Part shown: positions 3,114-26,412 of the stretch, in pieces
How the letters are laid out: the number at the start of each line of letters is the position of its first letter
Numbering within the stretch: position 1 is the stretch's first letter
Assembly: GCA_964500905.1 (NCBI GenBank)
Contig: CAZCQT010000001.1
Coordinates: forward strand, 1 to 26,412
Length of the DNA stretch: 26,412 bases
Direction of reading: 5' to 3'
From: an uncultured Moorellales bacterium
GTDB taxonomy: Bacteria > Bacillota > DULZ01
Program-made: the position numbers and the translations under genes
The notes under the pieces: generated by a model
The model's database searches: none
Seen by the model: only the letters and a program-made list of their open reading frames with translations
What the model was told of the DNA's origin: nothing

Positions 3114-6100
3114 TTATTGACTGCCTGTTCTTAGAATTTTTTCAATTTCCGAGGCAGGCATTGGCTTGTAATATAAATAGCCTTGAGCCTCATCGCACAT
3201 TTTTTGATTAAGAAATTCCAGTTGAGTGTTAGTTTCTACCCCTTCCGCCAACACCTCAAGACCAAGGCTTTTTGCTAATTTGATAATAATTTTTGTAATA
3301 GCCTGATCCTTTTCACTACCCTCTATGCCCTGCACGAATTGCATATCAATTTTTATACGATCAATTGGCAGCATTTTTAACCGATTAAGGGATGAATACT
3401 CTGTGCCAAAATCATCAATAGAGATTGACACCCCTAGTTTTTTTAATTTATTCAGTGTATCTACTGTGAAACCGGCCTCTTTTGTAGCAATACTTTCAGT
3501 AATCTCCAACTCAAGGTATTTTGAATCCAGACCAGTTTCCTGAAGTAATTGCTCTACCATTTTCACAAAACGTGGATTGCTAAATTGTATAACAGATAAA
3601 TTAACCGCCATTCGCAAAGGAATCAAACCCTGATCCTGCCACCTTTTATTCTGATTGATGGCTGTTTTTAGAACCCATTCCCCTATGCTATTGATCAAAC
3701 CATTGTTTTCCGCCAAAGGGATAAAAACCGCCGGCGGTATCATTCCCATTTCAGGGTGCTGCCAACGTAGCAGAGCCTCCAAGCCTATAATTTTACCTGT
3801 TTGCATCTTGACTTGAGGTTGATAATAAACAGCTAATTCACCTCGCTCCAAAGCCCTGTAAAGATTATTAGAAAGCATAATATTTCTCCTGACTTCTTCT
3901 TTCATCACAGCAGTGCATAATACATATTGGTTTTTACCTTTGGATTTAGCTTTATACATTGCAATCTCTGCATTCTTAATCAAGGTTTCCGTGTCCTCAC
4001 CATCAATTGGGTAAACCGCAACACCGGCACTGGCTGTGATATAAAATTCCTGACCATTTAAATCAAAGGGTTTTGTAAAGATCCCCATAATATCATCAGA
4101 AACCGTAATAATATCCTCGGGGTTCCCTATATTATTAAGCATAATTAAAAACTCATCTCCACCAAACCTTGACACTGTATCTGTTTTACGTAAACGATCC
4201 ACCAAACCTTGAGCGACCTCTTTAATAATGGTATCCCCGGCACCATGCCCCATGGTATCGTTAATAGACTTAAAACTATCTAAATCCATCAATAAAACCC
4301 CAATAAGCTTTTCAGTCCTTTTAGCCAAATTAATGGCCTGAGTCAGTCTGTCAGAAAACAAAATGCGATTCGGCAGAGTAGTCAAAACATCATAATAGGC
4401 CATAAATTCAATTTCTTTTTCGGATTTCATTTTTATAAAGCCGTTAGCCAACAGATTGGATAAGATATCCAACAACTCAAAGCTTTTTGGGTACCAATGT
4501 TTAGTGGAAGCAACGGTATCTAAACCAATAAAACCAATCAAATCGCCATTTTCTTCGATGGGAAACATTACTACGGTTTTATTATCTAATCGATTGAGTA
4601 GGGCTATTTCCTCCCTGGCTTCGTCGGGCAATTTTTTCACATCTTCAATATAAATTGGTTGTTTGCCTTGAAATTGCTGTACCCACCATGGGAATCTATC
4701 CTTGGGTATTTCTCCGTTGATACTCGTTTGATAATAGATGTCTGCTTTGCACCATTCATAACCATAGGACAGGGTCTGCTTTTCGTCGTTGATTAAAACA
4801 ATGTAGGCCCGATCCACATCAAAAAAGTTACCTATCTTTTCTAGGGCACTATTAATTTTATCATCGCTGCTGGCTTGGCTGACACTAACAAAATCAAATG
4901 ATACTTCGGAAACAAGCTTTTGAAAATTAGCTTGGTAGATGTTCTCTCTTAGCCTTCTAAGGTAAATTTTATTAATGGCCGAACCCATCCAAAAAGCTAT
5001 CAAAAACATACCTATACGCAATAGATAATCCAAATTGTGAGCATTAAGCGGTTCCTGGGCTGTTATTTGCCACAATAGAACCTGGGTAGCGACTATAACG
5101 GCGGTCATGATGATTAGAGGAAGTCTCGTGTTAAAAACAAGGGAAGCTATCATTAAAATAATGGGTAAGGCCCAAACCATGGTTGCCGCTGCTGTTTTAA
5201 TAAATATCAACATAACTATCGGTATGGAGGAAACCAAAGTTGACATGATCAGCAGGTCTTTAACCCTTTTATTTTTAACTAGCTGAAGAGCCAATATTAA
5301 GGCACCTATAATAAATAAGATGCCGCTGGCGAACAAAAAACCACCCGGCGATTCTCCGCCACGATCCATTCGCGAGAAAAAGTAGGATGTAAAACTAATA
5401 CTGCTGGCAGCCAAAAATGTAACTGCTATATGATAGTATAATATCGCCCGAGTTTTTACGCTTAGGATCAAAGTTTTATTCTCATCCTCAACTATTTCTA
5501 CCATTAGGCCATAACGCTTCATGGAATAGTAAATTGCGGTAATGGGAATTAAAATAACCACGGGGGCCATCTGAGGAAGAGGGATTGGCAAATACGAAAC
5601 CAAGATGACATCAGTAAGACTGCCTAGAATCAGAGCCATTAGCATAGAGTTAAAGATCAACTTTGACTGCCTTTGAACACTTAATTCGGAAGAGCTTTTT
5701 CGCCAAAGACCTATAATTACTAAGGAAGAAAGCATATAAGTTCCATAATAGATATAGAAAAAAATATCCAGTCCATTCTTGACCGATATATTGATCCATC
5801 CATAATCCATTCTTATTAAATTATATTGGGCTGCTGTTAAGGTCGGGGAAAGAGCAAAGGCATAAACAGCTATTACAGCAGGAAGGTATAATAAGCAGAT
5901 AAAAATTCTTTTACTGATTATTTTATTTTTATTTGTAAGCACTAAAAAGAAATGCAACAAAAAAGCATACATGCTTCCCCAGCCAACAGCCGAAACCCTT
6001 CGCCAAAACAAGGCCGACTCTAAATTTTGTGCTGAGTTGGCAATTGAAAAACCGAAGGCCCAAAAAACCAGGGAAATGCTAATTGCAAAAAACAATTTAT

Positions 6101-6209
6101 TAACCGTAGCTGTGGGGTTTCGATAGATAATGTACGCCCCAAAAAACATATACATTGTAAAAACAGCGAAAAACATCAGTGAAAAAAACAGGGCAAAATC
6201 CATCGGCAT
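3114..6209 (-). CDS. Membrane c-di-GMP cyclase/phosphodiesterase: multi-TM N-terminus (HisKA_7TM-like), GAF, GGDEF, EAL
   Basis: AAGGGGG RBS. About 12 hydrophobic segments, then a GAF-like region. 'YDVLTTLPNR', GGDEF with RKTD I-site, EAL ('GLEALLRW'), 'ELEITES', 'IDDFGTEYSSL', 'KID', 'AEGVE'. Confidence 0.93.
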   Translation of the reverse strand: MPMDFALFFSLMFFAVFTMYMFFGAYIIYRNPTATVNKLFFAISISLVFWAFGFSIANSAQNLESALFWRRVSAVGWGSMYAFLLHFFLVLTNKNKIISKRIFICLLYLPAVIAVYAFALSPTLTAAQYNLIRMDYGWINISVKNGLDIFFYIYYGTYMLSSLVIIGLWRKSSSELSVQRQSKLIFNSMLMALILGSLTDVILVSYLPIPLPQMAPVVILIPITAIYYSMKRYGLMVEIVEDENKTLILSVKTRAILYYHIAVTFLAASSISFTSYFFSRMDRGGESPGGFLFASGILFIIGALILALQLVKNKRVKDLLIMSTLVSSIPIVMLIFIKTAAATMVWALPIILMIASLVFNTRLPLIIMTAVIVATQVLLWQITAQEPLNAHNLDYLLRIGMFLIAFWMGSAINKIYLRRLRENIYQANFQKLVSEVSFDFVSVSQASSDDKINSALEKIGNFFDVDRAYIVLINDEKQTLSYGYEWCKADIYYQTSINGEIPKDRFPWWVQQFQGKQPIYIEDVKKLPDEAREEIALLNRLDNKTVVMFPIEENGDLIGFIGLDTVASTKHWYPKSFELLDILSNLLANGFIKMKSEKEIEFMAYYDVLTTLPNRILFSDRLTQAINLAKRTEKLIGVLLMDLDSFKSINDTMGHGAGDTIIKEVAQGLVDRLRKTDTVSRFGGDEFLIMLNNIGNPEDIITVSDDIMGIFTKPFDLNGQEFYITASAGVAVYPIDGEDTETLIKNAEIAMYKAKSKGKNQYVLCTAVMKEEVRRNIMLSNNLYRALERGELAVYYQPQVKMQTGKIIGLEALLRWQHPEMGMIPPAVFIPLAENNGLINSIGEWVLKTAINQNKRWQDQGLIPLRMAVNLSVIQFSNPRFVKMVEQLLQETGLDSKYLELEITESIATKEAGFTVDTLNKLKKLGVSISIDDFGTEYSSLNRLKMLPIDRIKIDMQFVQGIEGSEKDQAITKIIIKLAKSLGLEVLAEGVETNTQLEFLNQKMCDEAQGYLYYKPMPASEIEKILRTGSQ

Positions 6210-8235: not shown

Positions 8236-8263
8236 AATAAAATTTACACATATTTGGTTCAAA

Positions 8264-8387
8264 AGCCACTGAACTGCCGACCGATTTTTACATTATTTTT
8301 AAATAAGGTTAAAAAACCTGCCTGCTTTGATCCTTGTGGAATTTCTAGCAGACACCATTCAAATCCGAACACACAGTTTCAGTGGCT
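8264..8387 (-). ncRNA. Candidate structured RNA or miniature inverted-repeat element
   Basis: Terminal inverted repeat AGCCACTGAACTG (8264-8276) / CAGTTTCAGTGGCT (8374-8387), with further internal stems. Strand inferred from G-U versus A-C pairing. Confidence 0.35.
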
Positions 8388-8416
8388 CCAACTATTTTCG
8401 CCTTATTTTGTATCCC

Positions 8417-10336
8417 TTACCTACTTCCCATTGATCTTTTGATTAGCATTTTATTGCTGTTCTTTTTGCTTGATACAATCTCCACCTTAAACCCTTTGCG
8501 ACTTTGACTGACAGTTGCCGCCATGAAACCGAAAAACATTGTCGCCCAAACTACGGCGGTTATCAACACCCCTGTCAATACCCCCGCCCAAGCAGGCCAT
8601 AACAAGGGCCTGGTAATGAGGTACAGCCCATAGGTAATAATTGAGATAAATCCCCATTCAAAAGCAACAGGGGGGAGTTGCTCTATAAGAGAAACCAACT
8701 CGATGGGCCGGGTAATTATTAAAATTCCCACTGATAAAAACAGGATAAAAATAAGATTAATCAAATACATCACCAAGGAGGCCCCCGGTGCGATCCTCTG
8801 GTGTGGATTTTCCGGATTAAAGCGACTATTATTGATGGAATAAAACAGGCCGACAGCACTGGAGCCAAGGGATAAAAAGATAGCCCCGCTTGCAAGGGCA
8901 AGCAGCACGGGAAAACTAAAGCCAATAGCTATGCCGCTTCCTACCAATAAGACTTCCATTAAAATTAAAGTCGGCAAAACTGAGGCCACTAATTTGCCAA
9001 AGACCACGGGCCAGCCGGTTAAGGGCACGCTGTTTAGCAGCCAATCAGATTCCCCTTCACGACCAAAGGACTGCAAGGCCATATTGCCGCTAAACATTAT
9101 AGTGTACATCACCAAGACGGTGATTAAGGTGCTTTGAGACATATCTGATTTACCAAGGAAAAAATACTGGCCGATAAAAAATGCCATTATAATTAAGGGC
9201 ATTAAGTAGCCAAACCATTCCCTGATGTCCCGCTTTAAATAAAGCAAATCTTTTTTTGCAATGGCCCATACCCCAATAAAAATTGAGGCTTTTGCTCCGA
9301 GCTTTTCTTCCGCTTTTACTTCAGCAAATATTTTATTTAACAAGGCAGGTTCCCTACGCCGGGCAGAGGCTTGAATGTTATCGGCATTTCTCGCTTTTCG
9401 GTTGGATTTGCGGCCATGCCCCCCTTCCCCTTGGCTCAAGGAAATAAAACCTTGGCGAAAACCACGCTCGACAAAATTAAAGGCTATACCAAAGAGTAGC
9501 AGACCAAAAAACAAGGTTAAAAGGCTCCAAGCAAAGGCAGTTAACCCGTTTCCCGAAATAGAGGCAGCCAAGGCTTTGGAACCCCAGCCCCAGGGAAAAA
9601 GGTCCATTATATTTAAGAGTTGCTCGTTTCCCGTCAGCCATGAGCTGAAATCAAATTGTTCCACCCTGCCTGCCACCAAATTGGGTATTTGAAACATCAG
9701 AGCTATTATAACACCCGCCAAAGCACCTATAACTCCTACAGCTTCTCTACTGCGATGCGGAGGAATGACGCGCATCACCAGTAAATTTAACAATTCTGCA
9801 AGAGCTGTGCCGATAATTAAAAGACCAAGACTAACTAAAACAGCCGCTAGATAAAAAAGTCCGCCGGCTTGAAAAAACAATCCGTAAAATGTGGCAGGCA
9901 GTAAAACAAATAAAATAGCGGTAACTAAATTACTAATAAACACATTTAATGATTTTACAGCAAAAACAGCTTTAAGTGATACCGGTGCCATAAAAAGAAG
10001 CTCAAGATCCTCGGACATATAAAGGGAGGTAAAAGCAGCGGTAATACCAAAAAATATTTGGGCAACCATACCGCTCATAAATATTAAACTTAATAACCCC
10101 CTACCTAATTCAGGCGAAACACTTCCTATGGCACCATAAGCTAAGGAGCCCAAATAGATAACAAAACTCAACAGCCCTATTAAAGCGATACCCATAATAA
10201 TCAAATGCTTTTTAGGCAGATATCTCCACTTATTCCAAGTAACCCTTATCTGATTTTTTGTCAACAGTATCAAATCACTGGTAAAGGATTGGGACAGCGG
10301 GGGAGTCTCCAGTGGAGGCGGCAAAATGTTTTTCAT
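8417..10336 (-). CDS. Large ABC exporter permease (ABC-2-like, about 14 TM)
   Basis: ATGA overlap with the ATPase stop. Two hydrophobic halves joined by a basic cytoplasmic loop. Family-type motifs 'LELLFMAPVS', 'AKKDLLYLKRD' and 'SFGREGES'. Confidence 0.85.
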   Translation of the reverse strand: MKNILPPPLETPPLSQSFTSDLILLTKNQIRVTWNKWRYLPKKHLIIMGIALIGLLSFVIYLGSLAYGAIGSVSPELGRGLLSLIFMSGMVAQIFFGITAAFTSLYMSEDLELLFMAPVSLKAVFAVKSLNVFISNLVTAILFVLLPATFYGLFFQAGGLFYLAAVLVSLGLLIIGTALAELLNLLVMRVIPPHRSREAVGVIGALAGVIIALMFQIPNLVAGRVEQFDFSSWLTGNEQLLNIMDLFPWGWGSKALAASISGNGLTAFAWSLLTLFFGLLLFGIAFNFVERGFRQGFISLSQGEGGHGRKSNRKARNADNIQASARRREPALLNKIFAEVKAEEKLGAKASIFIGVWAIAKKDLLYLKRDIREWFGYLMPLIIMAFFIGQYFFLGKSDMSQSTLITVLVMYTIMFSGNMALQSFGREGESDWLLNSVPLTGWPVVFGKLVASVLPTLILMEVLLVGSGIAIGFSFPVLLALASGAIFLSLGSSAVGLFYSINNSRFNPENPHQRIAPGASLVMYLINLIFILFLSVGILIITRPIELVSLIEQLPPVAFEWGFISIITYGLYLITRPLLWPAWAGVLTGVLITAVVWATMFFGFMAATVSQSRKGFKVEIVSSKKNSNKMLIKRSMGSR

Positions 10337-13579: not shown

Positions 13580-14065
13580 TTGTCCAATAATAAAATGAAA
13601 AAACTAACTCCTGTACAACAAGAATATCAAGAGTTGGCTTTAGATAAGGAACCTAAAAGACCTTTATTTACAAATTGCTGGCACGCTTTTGTCGCAGGGG
13701 GAACCATTTGTTTAATAGGCCAAGTGGTGCAAACGGCTTTTATTAAGTGGGCAGGGTTCGAACAAAAAGATGCAGGCAATCCCACTGTGGCTGTTATGAT
13801 TATTTTATCAACCATACTAACAATTTCAGGCGTTTACGACAAATTGGCTCAGTGGGCAGGTGCCGGTTCGGCTGTTCCGGTAACGGGCTTTGCAAACACT
13901 ATGTCCTCTGCGGCACTGGAACACAAAAGTGAGGGAATGGTTTTAGGAGTTGGAGGCAAAATGTTTAAGGTAGCGGGACCTGTTATCGTTTTTGGGACAG
14001 TCGCCGCATTTATCATAGGAATTTTACATTGGCTATTTAATCCACACATAGGGGGAATGGTTTAA
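13580..14065 (+). CDS. spoVAC: Stage V sporulation protein AC
   Basis: AGGAGG RBS with TTG start. 'AFVAGGTICLIGQ', 'GVYDKLAQWAGAGSAVPVTGFAN', 'KMFKVAGPVIVFG'. Confidence 0.95.
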   Translation: MSNNKMKKLTPVQQEYQELALDKEPKRPLFTNCWHAFVAGGTICLIGQVVQTAFIKWAGFEQKDAGNPTVAVMIILSTILTISGVYDKLAQWAGAGSAVPVTGFANTMSSAALEHKSEGMVLGVGGKMFKVAGPVIVFGTVAAFIIGILHWLFNPHIGGMV

Positions 14066-15078
14066 TGTTGAAAGGACACCAGACTTGGCTTTTTCCAAAC
14101 CAACCAACTATTATTGGCACAGCTACAGTAGTTGGGCCCTTTGAGGGGCAAGGCCCGTTAGCCAAGGATTTTGACATTATCCACGGTGATCTGTCTATAG
14201 GACAAAAAAGCTGGGAGAAAGCTGAAAGAACTCTTTTGGAAGAAGCCAACAAGCTGGCTATAGAAAATGCCGGCCTGACTAAAGAACAAATTAATTTTTA
14301 TATTGGCGGCGATCTGATGGATGAAATCATTAGCAGTAGTTTTGCTGCCAGAACCCTAGCCGCTCCTTTTTTAGGCATCTTTGGTGCCTGCTCAACAGCT
14401 ATGGAAGGACTGTCTCTTGCGTCATTAATTATTGCTTCCGATTCGGCAAACTACGTACTGGCTTCCGCTTGCAGTCATAATGCCAGTGCGGAAAAACAAT
14501 TTCGCTATCCTACCGAATACGGTGCACAAAAACCCCCTACTGCTCAATTTACCGTGACCGGATCCGGCTCCGCTGTGATAGCTAAGGCAGGAAAAGGGCC
14601 AAAGATTGTCTCGGCTACAATCGGACGAGTTGTAGATATGGGACTGAAAGACCCTTTCAACATGGGGGCCGCTATGGCACCCGCAGCGGTAGATACAATT
14701 CAAGCCCATTTCAGAGATTTGCAAATTAAGCCGAATCATTATGACTTAATAGTTACAGGTGATCTTGCTAAGGTGGGCTATGAGCTGGCTTTGGAATTAT
14801 TTAAAAAACACAACTTTCCTATTGAAAAAACTCAATATAATGATTGCGGAATGATGATTTATGATTATGAAACGCAAAATGTACAAGCCGGGGGAAGTGG
14901 CTGTGGCTGTTCAGCCGTAGTGACCTATGGTCATTTGCTTAAAAAACTTCAACAAGGAGATTTCAAAAGAATTCTGGTAGTTGCCACAGGTGCCTTGCTA
15001 TCACCATTATCCTTCCAACAAGGTGAAAGCATTCCTTGTATTGCTCACGCTGTAGCTATTGAGAGAGGAAAGGAGTAA
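14065..15078 (+). CDS. spoVAD: Stage V sporulation protein AD (dipicolinate-binding)
   Basis: TAATG overlap with spoVAC. 'VGPFEGQGPL', 'SWEKAE', 'GACST', 'FRYPTEYGAQKPPTAQFTVTG', 'GGSGCGCSA', 'IPCIAHAV'. Confidence 0.96.
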   Translation: MLKGHQTWLFPNQPTIIGTATVVGPFEGQGPLAKDFDIIHGDLSIGQKSWEKAERTLLEEANKLAIENAGLTKEQINFYIGGDLMDEIISSSFAARTLAAPFLGIFGACSTAMEGLSLASLIIASDSANYVLASACSHNASAEKQFRYPTEYGAQKPPTAQFTVTGSGSAVIAKAGKGPKIVSATIGRVVDMGLKDPFNMGAAMAPAAVDTIQAHFRDLQIKPNHYDLIVTGDLAKVGYELALELFKKHNFPIEKTQYNDCGMMIYDYETQNVQAGGSGCGCSAVVTYGHLLKKLQQGDFKRILVVATGALLSPLSFQQGESIPCIAHAVAIERGKE

Positions 15079-15085
15079 AAAATCT

Positions 15086-15436
15086 ATGGATTTTTTTTGG
15101 GCTTTTGTGATAGGGGGTTTGATTTGTGTCTTCGGCCAAATCTGCTTCGATGTTTTTAAGCTCTCGCCTGCTCACACATCTACCCTGCTAGTAGTTCTGG
15201 GTGCAATAGTAGGAGGATTGGGGCTTTATGAGCCCTTCATTGAATTCGCTGGGGCCGGCGCTTCAATTCCCATCACCAGTTTTGGTAACTCTCTAGTTAA
15301 AGGGGCCTTGGGGGAGCTGAAGATCCACGGCCTTGTCGGAGTAGTTACAGGAATTTTTGAAATTACCAGTGCAGGTATTTCATCGGCCATTATCTTTTCC
15401 TTTTTCGCTGCCTTGTTTTTTAGACCCAAGGGTTAA
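15086..15436 (+). CDS. spoVAE: Stage V sporulation protein AE (SpoVAEb type, 116 aa)
   Basis: ATG 15086 after AGGAG. 'AFVIGGLICVFGQ', 'FAGAGASIPITSFGN', 'FRPKG'. Confidence 0.93.
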   Translation: MDFFWAFVIGGLICVFGQICFDVFKLSPAHTSTLLVVLGAIVGGLGLYEPFIEFAGAGASIPITSFGNSLVKGALGELKIHGLVGVVTGIFEITSAGISSAIIFSFFAALFFRPKG

Positions 15437-15607: not shown

Positions 15608-16033
15608 TTGAAAAGGGTAACACTGTTTTTAGGTGTCTTGTTTTTAGTAATTGTGTTTGGTGCCGGTGCAGCTGTTCGCCTGACCGAAAGTGCAGAGTTT
15701 TGCGGTTCCTGCCATATCATGAATGCCCACTATGAAACATGGGCCCACTCTTCTCATCGGGAGGAAACCAATTGCAATTCTTGCCATGTTCCCGAGGGCC
15801 TAATTGAAAAGCCCTTATACAAAGCAAAATCCGGTTTAATTGATGCTTATGTTTTTTTTATCAAGGGTTCTCCAGCCCATATTGAATTAAAGACCGACAG
15901 CCAAACAATAATTCAAGATAACTGTGTTAAATGCCACAGCACCTTCGTTAGGGAAATAACTAAGGGCGATGGGTTAAATTGCTACCATTGCCACCACTCG
16001 CCCCACGGAAAAGTTAAAAACTTGGTTTACTAA
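15608..16033 (+). CDS. nrfH: Tetraheme membrane-anchored menaquinol dehydrogenase (NapC/NirT family)
   Basis: N-terminal TM and four CxxCH motifs (CGSCH, CNSCH, CVKCH, CYHCH). Heme 1 has CxxCHxM. Directly upstream of nrfA. Confidence 0.93.
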   Translation: MKRVTLFLGVLFLVIVFGAGAAVRLTESAEFCGSCHIMNAHYETWAHSSHREETNCNSCHVPEGLIEKPLYKAKSGLIDAYVFFIKGSPAHIELKTDSQTIIQDNCVKCHSTFVREITKGDGLNCYHCHHSPHGKVKNLVY

Positions 16034-16055: not shown

Positions 16056-17315
16056 GTGAATAAAAAGATAATTGCCCTGGCAGGTATAGTTCTAATAGCT
16101 GCCGTTATAGGTATAGGTGCCTATCAAGCTGGTATGAAGGCCGGCAAACCTCAATTGCCTCCCCACACGGTAGTCCTGAATCCTAAAGAAACAAGCAATG
16201 AGGTTTTTGGCCAATATTATCCCCGAGAATACGAAAGTTATTTAAAAAATTATGATATGAGCCAAGGACCAAGCGTTTATGGAGGATCTCACGAAAAAAG
16301 CAACTTGGATGTATATCCTTATATGAAGGTTCTTTGGAAGGGCTATGGTTTTGCAGAAGAATACCTGGAAGATCGAGGTCATGTTTACGCCATTGAAGAT
16401 GTAAAAAAGACTAAAAGAAATCCCCCCAGAGCTGTCTGTTGGGTTTGTAAAAGCACAGAAATTCCGCAAACCATTGAAGAAATGGGAGACGCATTTTACA
16501 GCATGCCTTTTAAAGAAGCAGCTGAACGATTTGTCAACCCCATTGGTTGTAGCGATTGCCACGATCCTGAAACTATGAGCCTGAGAATTACGCGGCCTGC
16601 CTTGGTTGAAGCTTTGGAAGAACAAGGGATAAATATAGCAAAGGCCAGCCTGCAAGAAATGCGCTCCTATGTATGTGCCCAATGCCATGTGGAATATTAT
16701 TTTGAAACAGATAATTTTATACCTGTTTTTCCGTGGAAAAACGGTATGGATCCAGAGGATGTATATGAGTATTATCAAGAAATTGACTTTGCCGATTTTA
16801 CACATCCCGATGCGGGTACAAAGCTTTTAAAAGGCCAACATCCTGATTTTGAGATGTTTACTGATGGCCCCCATCAATCCCGAGGGGTATCCTGTGCAGA
16901 CTGTCATATGCCCTATGTAGTAGAGGGCAACACGAAGATATCATCCCATTGGTGGACCAGCCCTTTAAAACAGATGGAAAATTCCTGTGGTGTCTGCCAT
17001 CGCGGCAATATGGATGATTTGCGAGATAGAGTTCTTTATACCCAGGACAGAAATAAGGATTTATTGGATCGGGCTGGACAAGCCAATGTAGAAGCGGTCA
17101 ATGCGATTGCCGCCGCCGGTGAATCGGCAAATGTTGATGAAAAGCTACTGGAGGAAGCCCGAGCCCTACATAGAGAGGGTCAGTGGTATTGGGATTGGGT
17201 CAGTGCAGAAAATAGTATGGGATTTCACAACCCACAAAAGGCGATGAACACCCTGGGAAAATCTATAGATCTTGCAAGTAAGGCCAGAGATTTAGCCAAA
17301 GAGGCTGCCAGATAA
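16056..17315 (+). CDS. nrfA: Pentaheme cytochrome c nitrite reductase (ammonia-forming)
   Basis: CWVCK active-site motif plus CSDCH, CAQCH, CADCH and CGVCH. Catalytic Arg ('DRGH'), Tyr ('CHVEYY') and His ('KGQH'). C-terminal 'AENSMGFHNP'. Confidence 0.96.
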   Translation: MNKKIIALAGIVLIAAVIGIGAYQAGMKAGKPQLPPHTVVLNPKETSNEVFGQYYPREYESYLKNYDMSQGPSVYGGSHEKSNLDVYPYMKVLWKGYGFAEEYLEDRGHVYAIEDVKKTKRNPPRAVCWVCKSTEIPQTIEEMGDAFYSMPFKEAAERFVNPIGCSDCHDPETMSLRITRPALVEALEEQGINIAKASLQEMRSYVCAQCHVEYYFETDNFIPVFPWKNGMDPEDVYEYYQEIDFADFTHPDAGTKLLKGQHPDFEMFTDGPHQSRGVSCADCHMPYVVEGNTKISSHWWTSPLKQMENSCGVCHRGNMDDLRDRVLYTQDRNKDLLDRAGQANVEAVNAIAAAGESANVDEKLLEEARALHREGQWYWDWVSAENSMGFHNPQKAMNTLGKSIDLASKARDLAKEAAR

Positions 17316-17401: not shown

Positions 17402-19147
17402 TTAAACTTTAAATTTATTAATCATTTCCGAAGTTTCTTTGGCCACTTTCTCTAAGGAAAGGACTGCCTCTTCAATTTCCCCCATTGAAGCCAATTGTTC
17501 TCTAATCGAGTTGGAGAAAGCATCAGCTGTTTGTGCAGTTTGTGTACCAAACCTTGAAACCTCATTAATAGAGGCAGATATTTCTTCACTGGCCGCACTT
17601 TGCTGCTGTGAAGCAGCACTTATACCCTGAATATTGCTGCCAATCTGCTCTATCCTTTGAATAATGGATTTAATCATTTTTTGGGCTTCTTCAACCTCTT
17701 TTTTACTATGATTAACTGCCTCCCCTGATTCTTGCAAATGGTTGTTTGCAGTTTGTGTTTTATCTGCAAGCTCCTTAATAATCTGAGAAATTTCCTTAGC
17801 AGATTGGGAGGAGTGCTCAGCTAAACCTCTTACTTCCTCTGCGACTACCGCAAACCCCCTACCTGCTTCCCCTGCTCTTTGGGATTCAATAGCTGCATTT
17901 AAAGCTAACATATTTGTTTGAGATGCAATATCATTAATATTACTTACAAAGTTAGTTATCTTGTTAATGGATTCCTTCAGCAATTCAAATACTGTTTCCA
18001 GCTCACTAACTTTATCATGTACATGACTGACCGAGGATACAACCCTATCCATACTGCTACCGGATTCCATTGCCTCTTTAGTCACTTCTTCACTTTCCTC
18101 GAAGGATTCCTGAGTCAAGATAGATATATGAGTAGCACTATTGGCAACCTCTTCCGAACTATGTTTAATTTCTACAAGGTTTTCAGCCAAGGTGGCAGAT
18201 ATACTTACAAGCTCATTTACTTGAGCAGAATTATTAGCCAACACCTGTCTTGTATGCACTATACCTGCAGATATATCAACGGCGGCTTTTTCTAAATCAT
18301 TAGATGAAGCATTAATTTGAGTAAACATTTTTCTTAAATATAATAAAAACGCATTAAATTGGGCTGCTATTTTACCAATGATATCTTCAGATCTAGCCAC
18401 CAATTGATATGTCAGATCACCTTCACCGGAGTTCATATCCTTTAATTGTTTATTAATTTCATTTAAAGGTTTGTTAATCACTCGCCTTGACACAATCCAC
18501 ATAAAGGCCCCCAATAAAACAATAATCAAGCCCCCTGCTAAAAATACGAAGGTGGACATCAATCTTGATTGAGCTATTAAGTCATCCAAAGAAGTCATCA
18601 TACTAAAAACACCGTGAATACCCCCCACAGAGCCGACATGGCAGCCTAGGCAATATTCATCCAATTTGATAGGCATGACATATCTTAAGTATGTACCATT
18701 TTGATCCTCAAGTACCTCATAGCCCTCCAGCAGGTTTTCATCAGCTTTAAACCCTTCTATTACACTTGTTTCCCATTCATCAGCACTATTTTCCTTGTTT
18801 TTAGGACTTTCCGCACTTATCCGCACACTGGTGTTTTCTGCTTTCATTTTATCGGAAAAACTTCGAACAGTGGCAATTGCTTCATACATACCAATGCTGG
18901 CGGCATTGTAGGAGTTAATATTGGTCTGACGCAAAATGTGTTGATGGGTACTTTCCATGTTACCCCAAATGGAATCTAATTGAATAGCAACGCTTCTCAG
19001 CCTGCTAACTTCCTGCTCCATAGGCAGCTCGTTTAAATAGTTAATAATTAAAGCAGATCCGATAAATGTAGAAATAAGAAGAACCAAAACAAAAGGAATT
19101 AATAATTTAACCAATAAGCTTTTTTCCAGAATTTTTTTTAGTTGCAT
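17402..19147 (-). CDS. Methyl-accepting chemotaxis protein with a heme c (DUF3365-like) extracellular sensor domain
   Basis: Likely start ATG 19147 after GAGGTGGGGG. TM1, sensor with '[19 protein letters not shown]', 'LRYVMPI' and 'CLGCH', TM2, HAMP, and signalling tip '[38 protein letters not shown]'. Confidence 0.93.
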
Positions 19148-19172
19148 TTCCCCCACCTCACATCTGTAAAAA

Positions 19173-20204
19173 TTAGTGTATGATGCTTGCCCCTTCAATG
19201 TTCTTTCCTGTTAACGCCTTGTAAGACTGTTGCAATAATTGTGCGGTAAAAAACGGGTTATGGATACCTTTACTTCCATCGTGGTTTATTAAGGTGTAAT
19301 TATAAACCGCTAAATATATTTCTTTTGGAACATTTTCAAAAGGGTTACCCTCTTTATCGTAAAATACAAAAGCTCCTCTGGCAGTTTCAAAGTAACCACC
19401 CTCCAAGCTCTGATTAATTGCTTGCAGCAAAATATTCATCAAACCCAAAACTTCGTCTTGCATCCCTTCAACTACACCATCGCCATCATAATCCTCATTG
19501 GCTTTGATATTGAAATCTACTACATCATCATGGCAGGCACCGCAGATTAATTCTGCATTTTTTGCCTCCATTGCAAAGCTGTGGCTGCGAAAACCCTTGT
19601 CCAGCCTGGGCATATGACAGTCTACGCAGGAGTTATCCAAGCTAATATGACCAAAGGTATTGTTGTATTGCAGCTCCTCATTTAATTTAATACCTCCGGT
19701 GCCGGTTAAAATATCCCCTTGGGAACCATAATGAGGTTCAGACCAACCGGGATCATAAATGTTAGGGTTTACCCTACTGTTGTGACAGCTCATACATAAC
19801 GCTCCTGCCCCTGAGATAGAATTTTCTTTCGTTGGTATACTGATTATTCCGGCTTGTTTTAATTCACCCCCAAAGCCTTGATGGCATGTAAAACAATTTT
19901 GTCCTGCGGATATATGTAAATCTTCGGACTGAACCAGCTGTTGACTAAAAGCCTCCCCGTCATGACAAAGAACACACCCATCCCTGCCTATGGTAGCCGC
20001 TACCGGATTTGCATGAGCTGATTCAGACCATTGCTTAAATATTTGATCTGAAGATGAAATTAATGAAAAGTCTTTAGCAGCACCGATTTTTGGTAAATTA
20101 TCTCCTTTCTTAAATTCCAGCTCCCTAACCAGACTACTAGTACATCCCTGGAATAAAACAACAGCAACTATAATAGCTAAAAATATCACTATGTACCTTT
20201 TCAT
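19173..20204 (-). CDS. Pentaheme cytochrome c, probable lipoprotein, NrfA/c552-like architecture without the CxxCK motif
   Basis: Likely start ATG 20204. Signal [20 protein letters not shown]|C. Motifs CVLCH, CFTCH, CMSCH, CVDCH and CGACH, a DYDGDG motif, and C-terminal 'DGSKGIHNP'. Confidence 0.88.
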
Positions 20205-20375
20205 TAACTTGCCCATCCCCTTTTTAAATTCAGAACCGGATAATAACAAATATTATTAGTATTTTACCTTCAACATATTTAGCTAAAATCCTCCTTTTTT
20301 TGCAGCTATTGCTTGATATCAGACAGCAATTTTTGACGTCCCACTATTATAGCCGCCCACTTTTAGATGCAGTCA

Positions 20376-20384
20376 TGATATAAT
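20376..20384 (+). promoter_or_regulatory. Extended -10 element for ung
   Basis: TGATATAAT at 20376-20384, 17 nt before the ATG at 20402 and just upstream of its GAGGTGA RBS. Confidence 0.55.
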
Positions 20385-20401
20385 TGCTTGAGGTGAGTAA
20401 A

Positions 20402-21076
20402 ATGCAAATTTTAAAAAACGGCTGGCAGGAGTTACTTGGTGCCGAATTTAACAAAGAATACTATTTACGCCTACGGGAATTTTTAATTAAAGAGTATCGG
20501 ACTAAAACAATCTACCCGGATGTATATGATGTCTATAACGCCTTACATTACACCGACTATGAAAAGGTCAAAATTGTTATTCTAGGTCAAGATCCCTATC
20601 ATGGTCCTAACCAAGCCCATGGTCTGAGTTTTTCTGTTAAGCCCGGAATTAAGCCGCCGCCATCTTTAATCAATATCTTTAAAGAGCTTCAAAATGACTT
20701 AGGCTGTTTCATACCAAACAACGGCTATTTAAAAAAATGGGCGGATCAGGGGGTACTGCTTTTAAATGCCTCCTTAACTGTCAGAGCAGGACAAGCAAAT
20801 TCTCATAGTAATATAGGTTGGGAGCAATTTACGGCTAAAGTTATTTCCCTTTTAAACGGTAGGGAAGATCCTGTAGTTTTTATTCTTTGGGGAAAAAATG
20901 CTCAGTCAAAGCAAAGTTTAATAACAGAATCCCGTCACTTAATTCTTAAATCGGTTCATCCCAGTCCATTATCCGCCCACGCCGGTTTTTTTGGTAGCAG
21001 ACCATTTTCCAGAACTAATAATTTTCTTATTTCTCATAATAAAACCCCTATTGACTGGCAGATTGATAACATTTAG
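20402..21076 (+). CDS. ung: Uracil-DNA glycosylase (family 1)
   Basis: 'GQDPYHG', 'GVLLLN', 'LWG' and 'HPSPLS' motifs. Confidence 0.97.
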
Positions 21077-23135: not shown

Positions 23136-25325
23136 TTACTGTGCAATATAGGTCCTGGTCCATTCTGCAAGAGGAGGTGCCTTTCCTTCATATAAAATAC
23201 TCTGCCATTTTTTATCTGTTAAACGATCGGTAAGAGGCCAGGTAAATTCATAATGAGAATAAACCTTACCCTTGGCAATTCTGGGAACGCCCTCTACCAT
23301 AACCAAGACATAAATATCAAAAACATTACCTGTTGCCTCCTGTAAAACCATTCCATTAGGATCGGTGGCCACATCTGCCACTAAAGCAGCGGGGTTCTCA
23401 GAAACAGCCGAGCGATGGGAAACACCCTCATCGGACAAAGCCTCCAGCCAAAAATGCTCCAGCTGGCCGCCATAGGAACGAATCAAATTATGCTCTTCCT
23501 TGGTAAGGGACTCACCGGCTAATTCTTTTGAGGATATCATTTTTAAAGAAAAGGCCAATTGCCACAACCGCTCTAAACTGTCTTGATCCCTTTCATTTAA
23601 AAGACCCCGGGAAGCCAGACCTACTTTTGTTGTTTCAACTAAAGCGGCCAAACGACCATACAGATCCGGGTTGGGCTCTACATAACCCCGATCGTCTATT
23701 TCACCGCCGCCGCCCCCCATTTCAGCATAGACCTGTTTTGCATGTAAGATGGTATCATGCTTTAGCTCCGTCCAACTGGATAAAAAGGTGGCCAATTCTT
23801 TTCGTTGCCAAGCTTGGTTTTGCATAAAAAGTGGGTAAGCTTCCCCTTTTTCCGTGATAAGTGCCCTTAAAGTATCCAGCCAGCCCCAGTACAAATTTTG
23901 TGTCCACATTTCTCGGCTTAATCCGGCGATATATTGCTGTAATTTATGCATATTTTCGCTGTAGCCCGCAAAATCCACATCTCCCTCGGCCACCAAAATA
24001 GAGTAGGCCTCTTTAGAACCCATAGCAGCCGGAATATCAAGTGCCTTGGGTAACAGCCTCTTTTCACCTTTGCTATTTTCTTTTACATCACGGTAGACCA
24101 AGTTTTGAAAAATATCCCCATCTAAAGTATAGCGTTGACCCATAAAGCGAAAACCCTTAATATCTTCTTCGCGATCAGCTTGCAGGTCTTCTTCAAAAAT
24201 GGGAATGGAATTAAGGGCGGGCCCCTCCAATTGGCTAATCAGCTCCATAAAACTTTCCCATTTATCCTCATTGGAAACTAAATCGGCCAGTGTAACCCCC
24301 TCGCCATAACTTTTCTCCAGTTGCTTCTGATATTCAAAATAGGACAAATCGTCACTTTTGCCCACAAAAAAGTTGGTAGGCTCATAGATTGTTTCCCATT
24401 TTTCTTTATTTTCTTTTCCCTCTAGGATTAAGGTCATCAAAACAGCTGATTTTGTTTCATCTTCATTATTTGTTCTAAAGGTCATCCTTCCATACCACAT
24501 CATTGCTTTGAAATATGATTCCAGTTGTTCGCTGGCAGTATAATGCCCCCTGGGGATATATTGAGAGTAATCCTCCTTAAAAGCCTCTTCAATTGAGAGT
24601 TCTTGCCCCATATTCATTAACGGGGAAAAATCAATTCCGCCACAATCGGCTATAAGGGACAGCTCTTCCTTTGCCACTTCCGTAACTTCACTGGGAATTA
24701 CCACCTTGGAATCTAGAAGCTTGCCTGCAACAGCAAAAAAACCCACATTTCTTTTAGCAGCATTTTCCCAGGCTCCTCCTTTTAGAGTCTCGTATTGCTT
24801 TTGGGATTCCTTAAGCATGGATTTGGTCAAATCTTGCAATGTTTGTTCCAGCTTTTCCTTTTCAATCACTCTCAACAGATGACTGAAAAATAGATGGTAA
24901 TTGTGTAGCATGGAATCCGTAGTAATAAAGCTAGGTATGGCGGCATATGAATTCATTTCATAATCGATATAAAACTCCTGGGATAAAGCAGGTACCACAA
25001 CAAACCCGTTTTTCACAAGTAGCTTTTCTGCTTGGGAAGAAAACTTGAATTGCTCCCTATTAATAGTGTTTTCAAGCTTTAAATCCACAGCAATATTCGC
25101 TATTTCCGATTCTTCCTTCCACGGGGTATCTTGATCTGGGCTCGTTTGAGCATCTTGCTCCCCTACTGCCCCGTTATTATGATTAACATCTAAAGATACA
25201 TCTGTCTGCCCTGACTTATCCCCAATATTATCTTGTTTTGGCAAGTCAACCTGTTTGCCGCAGCCCACCCCCAAAATGATCAATGAACCGAGTAATACTA
25301 AAGCAATCAACCACTTTCTTTGCAT
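23136..25325 (-). CDS. DUF3160 domain-containing lipoprotein
   Basis: ATG 25325 after AAGGAGG. Lipobox 'ILGVG|C'. Family motifs 'FITTDSMLHNYH', 'DYSQYIPRGHY', 'FRFMGQRY', 'SSWTELKHDTILHAKQ' and 'GYVEPNP'. Confidence 0.9.
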   Translation of the reverse strand: MQRKWLIALVLLGSLIILGVGCGKQVDLPKQDNIGDKSGQTDVSLDVNHNNGAVGEQDAQTSPDQDTPWKEESEIANIAVDLKLENTINREQFKFSSQAEKLLVKNGFVVVPALSQEFYIDYEMNSYAAIPSFITTDSMLHNYHLFFSHLLRVIEKEKLEQTLQDLTKSMLKESQKQYETLKGGAWENAAKRNVGFFAVAGKLLDSKVVIPSEVTEVAKEELSLIADCGGIDFSPLMNMGQELSIEEAFKEDYSQYIPRGHYTASEQLESYFKAMMWYGRMTFRTNNEDETKSAVLMTLILEGKENKEKWETIYEPTNFFVGKSDDLSYFEYQKQLEKSYGEGVTLADLVSNEDKWESFMELISQLEGPALNSIPIFEEDLQADREEDIKGFRFMGQRYTLDGDIFQNLVYRDVKENSKGEKRLLPKALDIPAAMGSKEAYSILVAEGDVDFAGYSENMHKLQQYIAGLSREMWTQNLYWGWLDTLRALITEKGEAYPLFMQNQAWQRKELATFLSSWTELKHDTILHAKQVYAEMGGGGGEIDDRGYVEPNPDLYGRLAALVETTKVGLASRGLLNERDQDSLERLWQLAFSLKMISSKELAGESLTKEEHNLIRSYGGQLEHFWLEALSDEGVSHRSAVSENPAALVADVATDPNGMVLQEATGNVFDIYVLVMVEGVPRIAKGKVYSHYEFTWPLTDRLTDKKWQSILYEGKAPPLAEWTRTYIAQ

Positions 25326-25420
25326 TATTTTGCCTCCTTCTAGCAAAAGTTTCAATTTAGATACATCTGCACCTGAATGAGAATTTATTCGTAGCATTGC
25401 CGATTATTTTCTATTGATAT

Positions 25421-25558: not shown

Positions 25559-26412
25559 TTAAGCTTCCAACCTTTTTTCTAAGGCTGTAAGCTGATCCCT
25601 TAGTTCCCTAGGAAGTTTATCGCCGTAGGTTTTGTAGTTTTCTTTTATGGATTCAATTTCTTCAAGCCATCCCTCTACATCTACCTTAAGAAGTTTTTCC
25701 ATATCTTCCTTGCTCACATTGAGGCCTTCAACATCAATAGCATCCCCAGCCGGCATATATCCGATGGAAGTCTTAACGGCCTTGCCTTTTCCCGATACTC
25801 TTTCAACAATCCATTTTAGAACACGGCTGTTCTCACCAAAGCCGGGCCATAAAAATCTTCCGTCATCATCTTTTCTGAACCAGTTCACATAGAAGATTTT
25901 AGGAAGCTTATCAGTTGCGGTTTTTTCCCCAATTTCAAACCAGTGCTGCATATAGTCACCCACATGATACCCAATAAAAGGCAACATAGCGAAGGGATCT
26001 CTTCTTACCTGACCGATTTTATCTGAAATGGTGGCTGCAGTTATCTCCGAGCCCATGATAGATCCTAGAAATATACCATGTTGCCAGTCAAAGCTTTCAT
26101 GCACCAAAGGCACGATATTCCTGCGCCTTCCCCCTATAAGAATGGCTGAAATGGGCACCCCGTCCGGATCTTCCCATTCTTTTGCTATGCTGGGACATTG
26201 TTTTGCCGGAGCCGTAAATCTTGCGTTGGGGTGAGCAGCCTTTTTTTTCGAACCCCGATTCCAATCCTTACCCCTCCAGTCAATAAGGTGCTCAGGGGCA
26301 TCCACTCCAATTCCTTCCCACCATACGTCCTTATCGTCGGTAATAGCACAGTTGGTAAAGATGGAATTCTTTTGCATAGTAAGCATAGCATTGGGATTAG
26401 AATCCATTGCTG
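25559..26412 (-). CDS. pckG: Phosphoenolpyruvate carboxykinase (GTP), 3' part; the start lies beyond the window
   Basis: 'FTNCA', 'AHPNARF', 'GVPISAILIGGRR', 'DPFAMLPF', 'YVNWFRKD' and 'WPGFGENSRVLKW' are hallmarks of GTP-PEPCK. The frame is open to the window end. Confidence 0.96.
   Translation of the reverse strand, partial: AMDSNPNAMLTMQKNSIFTNCAITDDKDVWWEGIGVDAPEHLIDWRGKDWNRGSKKKAAHPNARFTAPAKQCPSIAKEWEDPDGVPISAILIGGRRRNIVPLVHESFDWQHGIFLGSIMGSEITAATISDKIGQVRRDPFAMLPFIGYHVGDYMQHWFEIGEKTATDKLPKIFYVNWFRKDDDGRFLWPGFGENSRVLKWIVERVSGKGKAVKTSIGYMPAGDAIDVEGLNVSKEDMEKLLKVDVEGWLEEIESIKENYKTYGDKLPRELRDQLTALEKRLEA

Follow-up and report, generated by a model that had tools for sequence, protein, structure and literature searches.

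A pentahaem cytochrome resembling the C-terminal module of OcwA is encoded in strict pairing with a haem chemoreceptor in Bacillota

What is the role of a five-haem cytochrome that looks like a nitrite reductase and is encoded close to a genuine one? The question is raised by a stretch of 26,412 nt from an uncultured Moorellales bacterium (contig CAZCQT010000001.1, positions 1 to 26,412; hereafter the window), in which a gene at 19173-20204 encodes a c-type cytochrome with five haems. An initial annotation, made from the sequence alone, had read the product as a repurposed NrfA-fold protein with His in place of the catalytic Lys, encoded under 2 kb from a true NrfA. In our analysis, the cytochrome gene is followed directly by the gene of a methyl-accepting chemotaxis protein (MCP) whose sole cofactor is a c-type haem, and this partner is the strongest clue to cytochrome function. 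The two genes, the spacer between them and the haem motif of the receptor are located as follows (here and below, motif coordinates of the cytochrome and the MCP were checked by translation):

19173-20204, minus strand: gene of the pentahaem c-type cytochrome lipoprotein (343 aa), an open reading frame (ORF) running from the ATG at 20204 (MKRYIV...) to the stop at 19173.
19148-19172, minus strand: 25-nt intergenic spacer with the ribosome-binding site GAGGTGGGGG, read from the sequence.
17402-19147, minus strand: MCP gene (581 aa, ATG at 19147), comprising a first transmembrane segment, an extracytoplasmic Tll0287-like (sCache_haem) sensor, a second transmembrane segment, HAMP and the MCP signalling domain, from Pfam.
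18638-18652, minus strand: CLGCH, the sole haem-c motif of the MCP sensor, from Pfam, the orthologue alignment and translation.

The short gap of 25 nt and the strong ribosome-binding site, together with the lack of a terminator-like site between the two genes, indicate that cytochrome and MCP are probably coupled in an operon. This arrangement is not peculiar to the window. At every locus with a cytochrome homologue of at least 50% identity, in metagenome-assembled genomes (MAGs) of Bacillota, Clostridia, Syntrophomonadaceae and Syntrophomonas, the same MCP gene lies directly downstream across a gap of 14-25 nt. Down to 48% identity no homologue lacks the pair, and the same order and gaps were found at loci L001-L015 and L091-L095, which represent ~10 lineages at 99-48% identity. 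The flanks of the paired loci are unrelated to each other, with a formate dehydrogenase-like operon plus comEC at one, DUF3189 plus an SLH protein at another, and a desulfoferrodoxin cluster at a third. Approached from the receptor side, a metagenome scan with an alignment of the MCP sensor retrieved five loci (99-49% identity), and the cytochrome gene was directly upstream in all five. The two-gene cassette is inherited as a unit. No cytochrome-MCP operon is described in the literature that we searched; the OcwA/NrfA superfamily and the sCache_haem MCP family are already known, each separately, and what appears to be new is that a lipoprotein pentahaem stands alone on the OcwA branch and, most of all, that it is strictly paired in an operon with a haem chemoreceptor.

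The pairing is confined to close relatives, as none of 75 loci with homologues of at most 45% identity shows an MCP within 4 kb. With respect to any detectable sCache_haem ORF, one of these 75 loci is an exception: in a MAG of Thermincola ferriacetica (L021), a pentahaem homologue with 37% identity has an aldehyde:ferredoxin oxidoreductase upstream and, at a distance of 3 kb downstream and behind a response regulator and a histidine kinase, a Tll0287-like ORF (8261-8998 of that locus, plus strand, cut by the locus end). This is a looser link of the cytochrome family to a haem-Cache protein beyond the MCP-linked subclade.

The receptor itself has a recognizable domain architecture. Its Pfam matches are Tll0287-like (PF11845, 52.3 bits against a gathering score of 24.1) and MCPsignal (147 bits), along with a weak HAMP match (21.1 bits, under the gathering score of 25), and hydrophobic segments at about residues 6-40 and 194-225 flank the ~155-residue sensor. 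The CXXCH residues of the sensor (C166, C169 and H170) are invariant in eight orthologues. Since it contains no further Cys, the sensor lacks an axial Cys ligand of the Tll0287 type, while the invariant Met64, Met87, Met101 and Met158 are candidate switch ligands. In Geobacter sulfurreducens, the haem MCPs GSU0582 and GSU0935, which are members of the sCache_haem family, have been proposed as redox sensors with midpoint potentials of -156 and -251 mV and an on/off switch by Met (PMC8396549). The sCache_haem domains that are fused to signalling modules bind nitric oxide (NO) tightly when ferrous and do not bind O2 (PMC12889525). The same study reports the sCache_haem family to be rare in Bacillota (PMC12889525); despite this rarity, two haem-c Cache sensors occur inside 26 kb of one Bacillota genome here. 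The second (1349-3103, plus strand) is a Tll0287-like domain with a CLKCH motif fused to a GGDEF diguanylate cyclase, according to Pfam. No cytochrome gene is found beside it, and the ORF upstream (9-1055) encodes a DUF5643 protein.

How would the cytochrome be placed relative to this receptor? Its N-terminus contains the following features:

20133-20204, minus strand: signal peptide and lipobox, with predicted cleavage before C21, then a low-confidence tether, from translation and homologues.
20109-20126, minus strand: tether motif R-E-L-E-F-K, residues 27-32, from an alignment of homologues (A1).

In homologues, the lipobox is canonical at the equivalent position and reads L-S-G-C or A-M-G-C (alignment A1). 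The mature cytochrome is thus predicted to be a lipoprotein of a monoderm cell, anchored via Cys21 to the cytoplasmic membrane and facing outwards; as context for the latter, the window contains spoVAC/AD/AEB genes and the relatives are Bacillota MAGs. About 55 residues precede haem 1 in the mature protein. Within the tether, the RELEFK motif is conserved in the MCP-linked subclade only, with L29 invariant and F31 nearly so (A1), and has no counterpart in the other stand-alone pentahaems of a second, more diverse alignment of 39 sequences (A2). The model described below has a pLDDT <50 for residues 20-45, which span this motif. RELEFK may be a docking peptide, although this is speculative. Regarding the start of the gene, a longer form from a TTG at 20249 is unlikely, given that the MKR/MKK start is shared by homologues and that the ATG has an A/G-rich stretch ahead of it. 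The leader of the cytochrome gene further contains a six-codon mini-ORF (MLKVKY*, 20256-20276, minus strand) 13 nt past a GGAGG (20290-20294), and a 46-aa gene has been called at the matching position in one homologous locus (L010).

The mature domain carries five CXXCH motifs in total, with cysteines at C77, C104, C137, C193 and C221. Besides these, a number of residues stand out in the family alignments, which include A2 and a further one, A3:

19962-19976, minus strand: haem 1 motif CVLCH, the counterpart of NrfA CWVCK and of OcwA haem 5 (CLKCH), from hhalign and HMMER to 6i5b.
19881-19895, minus strand: haem 2 motif CFTCH, from hhalign and translation.
19782-19796, minus strand: haem 3 motif CMSCH, followed by NSRVN where NrfA has V-E-Y-Y-F (Ca2+/Tyr), from hhalign and translation.
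19731-19733, minus strand: His158 (in PHY), invariant in alignments A1, A2 and A3.
19647-19649, minus strand: invariant His186 ahead of haem 4, from the family alignment and hhalign.
19614-19628, minus strand: haem 4 motif CVDCH(MP), from the family alignment, hhalign and translation.
19581-19583, minus strand: invariant His208 after haem 4, from the family alignment and hhalign.
19530-19544, minus strand: haem 5 motif CGACH, from hhalign and translation.
19476-19493, minus strand: DYDGDG, a loop of the DxDxDG type and candidate Ca2+ site, from translation.
19254-19268, minus strand: GIHNP, with invariant His315 and Asn316, in the C-terminal helical bundle; counterparts are GFHNP in NrfA and GVHNY in OcwA, from alignments.

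Is this protein, then, a nitrite reductase? The window offers a direct comparison, since it encodes a bona fide NrfHA pair, with nrfH at 15608-16033 (plus strand, 129.5 bits on TIGR03153) and nrfA at 16056-17315 (plus strand). This NrfA reaches 443 bits on the Pfam Cytochrom_C552 model and has CWVCK, VEYYF and QHPD; at 419 aa it is short and remains under the NCBIfam equivalog cut-off (333 vs 595), its scores on NF008339 and TIGR03152 being 333 and 253 bits. By BLASTP, the cytochrome is 27% identical to it over 162 aa (E 4e-8), in the C-terminal half only. When a family profile built from the 39 diverse sequences of A2 was aligned with the window NrfA by hhalign (probability 98%, E 1.3e-13), all five haem motifs paired in the order that the initial annotation had proposed, haems 1 to 5 with CWVCK, CSDCH, CAQCH, CADCH and CGVCH, respectively. 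The collinearity exceeds what chance would produce. The replacement of the catalytic Lys by His at haem 1 (CVLCH) is thereby borne out, as are the correspondences that had been seen around 'GH..CVDCHMP..SH' and at GIHNP, with GH(186) pairing with GPH, SH(208) with SSH, and GIHNP with GFHNP. The Cytochrom_C552 model also matches the cytochrome (30.3 bits against a gathering score of 24.1), in a region confined to residues 186-329.

The catalytic apparatus of NrfA is another matter. As had been noted initially, V-E-Y-Y-F, which provides a Ca2+ ligand (Glu) and the catalytic Tyr, is missing; the cytochrome has N-S-R-V-N instead and a deletion of ~22 residues after haem 3. It likewise lacks the K-x-Q-H segment with further Ca2+ ligands and the catalytic His, the QH of NrfA aligning to Leu174, and Arg74 is conserved only in part among the 39 members of A2. 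The DYDGDG loop singled out by the initial annotation is present, yet it characterises the family rather than this gene, 109-119 of 196 modules having it. The cytochrome is neither an NrfA nor a recent copy of the window NrfA and, lacking the NrfA catalytic apparatus, is probably not a nitrite ammonifier of the NrfA type. In this respect, the view that Lys ligation of haem 1 is the hallmark of NrfA catalysis proved too strong: in Campylobacter jejuni, an NrfA whose haem 1 motif is CXXCH shows high activity, its Arg/Tyr/His triad and Ca2+ site being retained (PMC13562315). Because this His-containing enzyme is active, the exchange of Lys for His is not diagnostic, and it is the missing Glu-Tyr and Lys-x-Gln-His segments, not the His at haem 1, that disqualify the cytochrome as an NrfA.

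Could the protein still serve NrfHA, either as a degenerate second NrfA or as an NrfB-like carrier? The distance of 1,858 bp (1.86 kb) to nrfA, the Cytochrom_C552 match above threshold and the hhalign probability of 98% against the window NrfA would speak for this. On the other side, the cassette and nrfHA are convergent, the MCP gene and nrfHA being separated by an 86-nt gap, and hence belong to separate transcripts; identity is just 27% and limited to the C-terminal half; and the cytochrome is nearer to OcwA than to any NrfA (see below). The NCBIfam NrfA models NF008339 and TIGR03152 are not among its 12 matches at E <= 1. An assignment as an NrfB-like carrier was rejected, as the NrfB-like matches in Pfam and NCBIfam lie below their cut-offs, those of the NrfB models by far, and the NCBI label of a cytochrome c3/c7 family was discarded because Pfam gives only short local motif matches. 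Nor does the proximity to NrfA, to which the initial annotation had attached meaning, hold elsewhere: nrfHA adjoins the cassette only in the window and in a relative with 79% identity, and is lost in homologues of 59-48% identity, that is, at most homologous loci. We regard the adjacency as inherited synteny and no evidence of function, and a role in the service of NrfHA as highly improbable and already largely refuted. Genes of this kind should not be annotated as nitrite reductases.

Where the cytochrome belongs instead became apparent from wider searches. While a word-indexed search yielded 10 close homologues only, an exhaustive profile search recovered 1,499 clusters (at 50% identity) with E <= 1e-3, of which 671 reach E <= 1e-10 and 101 reach E <= 1e-30. 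Among the best 150 of the 1,499 clusters, 37 have five CXXCH motifs per protein, 15 have six, 19 have eight and 41 have nine, and some proteins reach 24. With counts from 5 up to 24, the pentahaem unit of ~290 residues is a widespread module that occurs alone or embedded in cytochromes of 8 to 24 haems. The few source names seen in this family are 'hypothetical protein' and 'cytochrome c3 family protein' and, once, 'formate-dependent nitrite reductase cytochrome c552 subunit'; a family of ~1,500 clusters at 50% identity thus stands unannotated under labels such as 'cytochrome c3 family' or 'hypothetical'. Within it, a large group of ~368-aa proteins (A3; e.g. P0164-P0252) has an extra N-terminal CxxCHGD, making them hexahaem proteins, and a PHH doublet at the position of His158. 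Few members of this group have source names; these are from MAGs of Deltaproteobacteria and all are annotated as hypothetical.

Compared with solved structures, the A2 profile found residues 250-499 of OcwA (6I5B) at E 5.3e-20 and OmhA (6QVM) at 5.8e-14, followed by NrfAs at E 3e-12 and weaker, with ONR, HAO, OTR and MccA weaker still. An AlphaFold2 (AF2) model built from 121 sequences (pLDDT 80.8, pTM 0.80; an 11-sequence alignment had given a pLDDT of 46.9) led to the same ranking in Foldseek, where OcwA was the top match (E 1.5e-4, probability 1.00, TMq 0.50, ~17% structural identity), ahead of OmhA (E 1.1e-3, TMq 0.43) and Desulfovibrio vulgaris NrfA (E 4.3e-3, TMq 0.40). The idea of a repurposed NrfA fold therefore stands with regard to the superfamily fold and haem order, in that an NrfA is matched by structure, and fails with regard to lineage, as OcwA and OmhA rank ahead of any NrfA. 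OcwA is a nine-haem surface reductase from Thermincola potens, whose haems 5-9 superimpose on the NrfA core (PMC6703420). Soares et al. grouped OcwA and OmhA with MccA and c554, apart from NrfA and ONR (bioRxiv 10.1101/2022.02.24.481543), and according to Gavrilov et al., uncultured relatives around OcwA, OmhA and SmhC carry 5-17 haems (PMC7829351). The cytochrome is a member of the NrfA/ONR/MccA/OcwA superfamily that matches the C-terminal NrfA-like module and helical bundle of OcwA/OmhA, and it is best described as a stand-alone, lipid-anchored form of the OcwA-type C-terminal module. Its closest characterised relative is hence OcwA, of whose two modules it has one, with a different mode of anchoring; the initial annotation, which was to fall if the closest homologues belonged to a characterised family of known function, is thereby refuted by half. 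With a stand-alone pentahaem among the OcwA/OmhA relatives, haem number would have been cut to five a second time, NrfA being the other case, in line with the 'pruning' model of multihaem evolution (bioRxiv 10.1101/2022.02.24.481543).

This kinship raises the possibility that the cytochrome is an independent, OcwA-like electron carrier or terminal reductase in an extracellular electron-transfer (EET) or detoxification chain. It would then reduce soluble shuttles, metals or partner cells, the MCP being merely co-regulated such that cells swim when the pathway is in use, and no electrons or ligands would pass between cytochrome and receptor. OcwA and OmhA do act as terminal reductases, with Fe(III) and electron shuttles as acceptors (PMC6703420, PMC7829351), and the module is also found inside the 8- to 24-haem cytochromes. 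Moreover, stand-alone pentahaems of at most 45% identity occur without an MCP in varied contexts (Thermincola, Chloroflexi, Thermus, Deltaproteobacteria and others), which implies that the module has an MCP-independent function elsewhere. Against this stands the strictness of the pairing, which holds in both directions and across ~10 lineages while the rest of the neighbourhood changes, with intergenic gaps as tight as 14-25 nt. In addition, the partner is not just any MCP but specifically one with a haem-bearing sensor, the tether motif is specific to the MCP-linked subclade, and no other EET cytochrome or quinol dehydrogenase genes are conserved beside the pair. All in all, we consider such independence of the receptor unlikely.

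A related question is how the five haems are ligated. Across the 39 diverse members of A2, the five CXXCH motifs, His158, His186, His208, His315 and Asn316 are invariant, and position 64 is mostly His, with Lys in a subset of members. In our reading, His64, His186, His208 and His315 would be collinear with the four non-motif His residues that NrfA needs for haems 2-5, and distal-ligand positions are conserved throughout the superfamily except in OTR, according to Soares et al. (bioRxiv 10.1101/2022.02.24.481543). The Met that OcwA has at the counterpart of His186 would fit its His/Met-ligated haem 9. His158 is located in the loop between haems 3 and 4, which forms the distal roof of the first haem in NrfA and OcwA. 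HMMER and MAFFT align it with OcwA His383, three residues past HH380/381, whereas HMMER and hhalign place it on 'FTH' of NrfA, 13 residues before the catalytic 'QH', so that the earlier equation of 'PHYG' with 'QHPD' was not upheld; the two proteins share this loop, but residue equivalence within it is ambiguous. This leaves two readings for haem 1: either it is bis-His-ligated like the other four, in which case the protein could be a pure wire, or, as in OcwA, it is open and His158 belongs to its pocket. In OcwA, haem 5 is penta-coordinate with His380/His381 above its distal face (PMC6703420). Some relatives vary at these positions: one subgroup of stand-alone pentahaems has Lys for His64 (P0057, P0063, P0064, P0067, P0068 and P0128; A2), and a few larger, 8- or 9-haem relatives have Gln, Arg or Cys for His158 (P0075, P0082 and P0092). 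Such natural variants at putative axial or pocket positions could serve as natural experiments on haem ligation.

If haem 1 were five-coordinate with His158 in its distal pocket, the cytochrome might be a ligand-processing accessory that turns over a small N-oxide beside the receptor. By making NO from nitrite or hydroxylamine, or by scavenging NO, it would shape the NO signal at the sCache_haem sensor, and cells would in consequence swim towards, or away from, nitrite or nitrosative stress. In favour of this, the counterpart of haem 1 is penta-coordinate in NrfA, ONR, OcwA and OmhA, i.e. in all characterised members with this module, with the His158 loop as distal roof (PMC6703420; bioRxiv 10.1101/2022.02.24.481543). 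OcwA reduces Fe(III), electron shuttles and, slowly, nitrite (kcat 1 per min, KM 65 uM), hydroxylamine being another compound that it turns over (PMC6703420), while sCache_haem domains of the signalling type act as NO sensors (PMC12889525). Strongly conserved Gln162 and Asp164 follow His158 (A2, A3), and the cassette adjoins nrfHA in the window and the 79%-identical relative. The counterarguments are that five conserved non-motif His residues are available for five haems, making an all-bis-His protein equally possible; that the Tyr, Arg, Ca2+ site and Lys of NrfA are absent; that no homologue of 59-48% identity retains nrfHA next to the cassette; and that nitrite turnover by OcwA is very slow. 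We would therefore rate ligand processing as improbable.

What, then, might connect cytochrome and receptor? We suggest, tentatively and with slightly less than even confidence, that the haem chemoreceptor has in the cytochrome a redox partner of its own, with which it would exchange electrons. The direction in which the initial annotation had pointed, namely an electron carrier or a sensor, is a reasonable one. This proposal is based on the invariant cassette, on a tethered five-haem protein whose fold is built for haem-to-haem electron transfer, and on a receptor with a c-haem as its only cofactor on the same side of the membrane. Through the five-haem chain, the receptor haem would trade electrons with an extracytoplasmic electron-transfer chain or with redox-active compounds from outside, and its Fe2+/Fe3+ state and axial ligation would thereby be set. 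The receptor would then signal the extracellular redox or energy status to the flagellar motor, resulting in redox taxis. The same relay would keep the sensor haem ferrous, which would be a precondition for NO binding. As a monoderm cell cannot draw on a periplasmic pool of small soluble cytochromes, the partner would have to be co-expressed and tethered to the membrane, and this would explain why the two proteins are encoded in one operon. In a broader sense, the cassette points to a module for redox-sensing taxis, so far undescribed, among anaerobic Gram-positive bacteria.

Several points weigh against such a relay. Gene pairing alone cannot separate it from ligand processing or co-regulation, and an open haem 1, as in OcwA and NrfA, would favour a catalytic or ligand-binding role over a pure relay. 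In Foldseek, the model reaches moderate TM-scores (0.50 and 0.36). The solved Geobacter sensors in the PDB were not reached by a narrow profile of the MCP sensor, and a Met switch would apply here by analogy. Finally, the organism is uncultured, its sequence stemming from landfill and bioreactor metagenomes.

A bolder extension of a dedicated redox partnership, possible in our view but more doubtful, is that the cassette constitutes a new sensory input device, in which a multihaem 'antenna' cytochrome is hard-wired to a haem chemoreceptor and either trades electrons with extracellular redox partners or makes NO at an open haem. The electron partners might be minerals, humics, shuttles, electrodes or syntrophic partner cells; alternatively, nitrite or hydroxylamine would be converted to NO at the open haem. 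Either input would be imposed on the single c-haem of the receptor. If true, this would endow spore-forming, syntroph-like Bacillota with electro-, redox- or nitrite-taxis and would amount to a two-protein, haem-to-haem signalling step outside the membrane. For the question of how the extracytoplasmic haem of haem-c chemoreceptors (GSU0582/0935, DcrA, sCache_haem) gains its redox or ligand signal, the strictly conserved receptor-cytochrome operon provides a concrete two-component system for haem-to-haem signal input that could be expressed in vitro.

The remainder of the window encodes diverse functions. A 1,031-aa multi-pass membrane protein (3114-6209, minus strand) has GGDEF-like and EAL-like signatures in its C-terminal part, as read from the translation; together with the Cache-GGDEF protein at 1349-3103, it suggests a neighbourhood that may be rich in cyclic di-GMP (c-di-GMP) signalling. 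The spoVAC/AD/AEB-like ORFs lie at 13580-15436 (plus strand), named after the Pfam domains of their counterparts in the 79%-identical relative. Besides, there are a uracil-DNA glycosylase-like gene (20384-21076, plus strand, read from the translation), a DUF3160 lipoprotein gene (23136-25397, minus strand, Pfam 757 bits) and the C-terminal part of a GTP-dependent phosphoenolpyruvate carboxykinase (25559-26407, minus strand, likewise read from the translation).

How does the pair compare with known systems? OcwA (Thermincola potens TherJR_2595, 6I5B) and OmhA (Carboxydothermus ferrireducens, 6QVM), the best profile and Foldseek matches, share with the cytochrome a CXXCH at the 'catalytic' position, CxxCHMP at haem 4, G-x-H-N in the helical bundle, a His-bearing loop above the first haem of the module and monoderm Bacillota hosts. 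They differ in having 9 or 11 haems, whereas the cytochrome has five and lacks the c554-like N-terminal tetrahaem module, which contains a second open haem, as well as the beta-sheet or S-layer domain. The cytochrome is a predicted lipoprotein, as opposed to a cell-wall or S-layer protein; His186 is Met in OcwA; and a His-Tyr in the sequence stands against a His-His-Pro-His cluster in OcwA. A chemoreceptor gene lies beside the cytochrome, and no such pairing has been reported for OcwA or OmhA. With NrfA (PF02335; e.g. 1FS7, 2J7A, 8BCX), the cytochrome has in common five haems in the same order and with similar spacing, the four distal-His positions, CxDCHMP, G-[FI]-H-N-P and the C-terminal helical bundle. 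It differs from NrfA by the absence of CXXCK, of Glu-Tyr after haem 3 and of Lys-x-Gln-His, by a haem 3-4 loop that is ~22 residues shorter, and by having no conserved NrfH or NrfBCD partner gene.

On the receptor side, GSU0582 and GSU0935 of Geobacter sulfurreducens, DcrA of Desulfovibrio vulgaris and the sCache_haem receptors have the same architecture as the MCP, with a c-haem Cache/PAS-like domain, two transmembrane segments, HAMP and an MCP domain, and the MCP falls into the 'signalling' class (cluster 2) of sCache_haem, with a single CXXCH and no axial Cys (PMC12889525). For none of these receptors did the literature that we searched mention a dedicated cytochrome partner gene. The closest conceptual parallels are c554/HAO and NrfB/NrfA, in which a multihaem carrier is encoded beside a single redox partner and serves as its wire. 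The cytochrome has no sequence relationship to c554, and while the partners in those systems are enzymes, the partner here would be a signalling protein.

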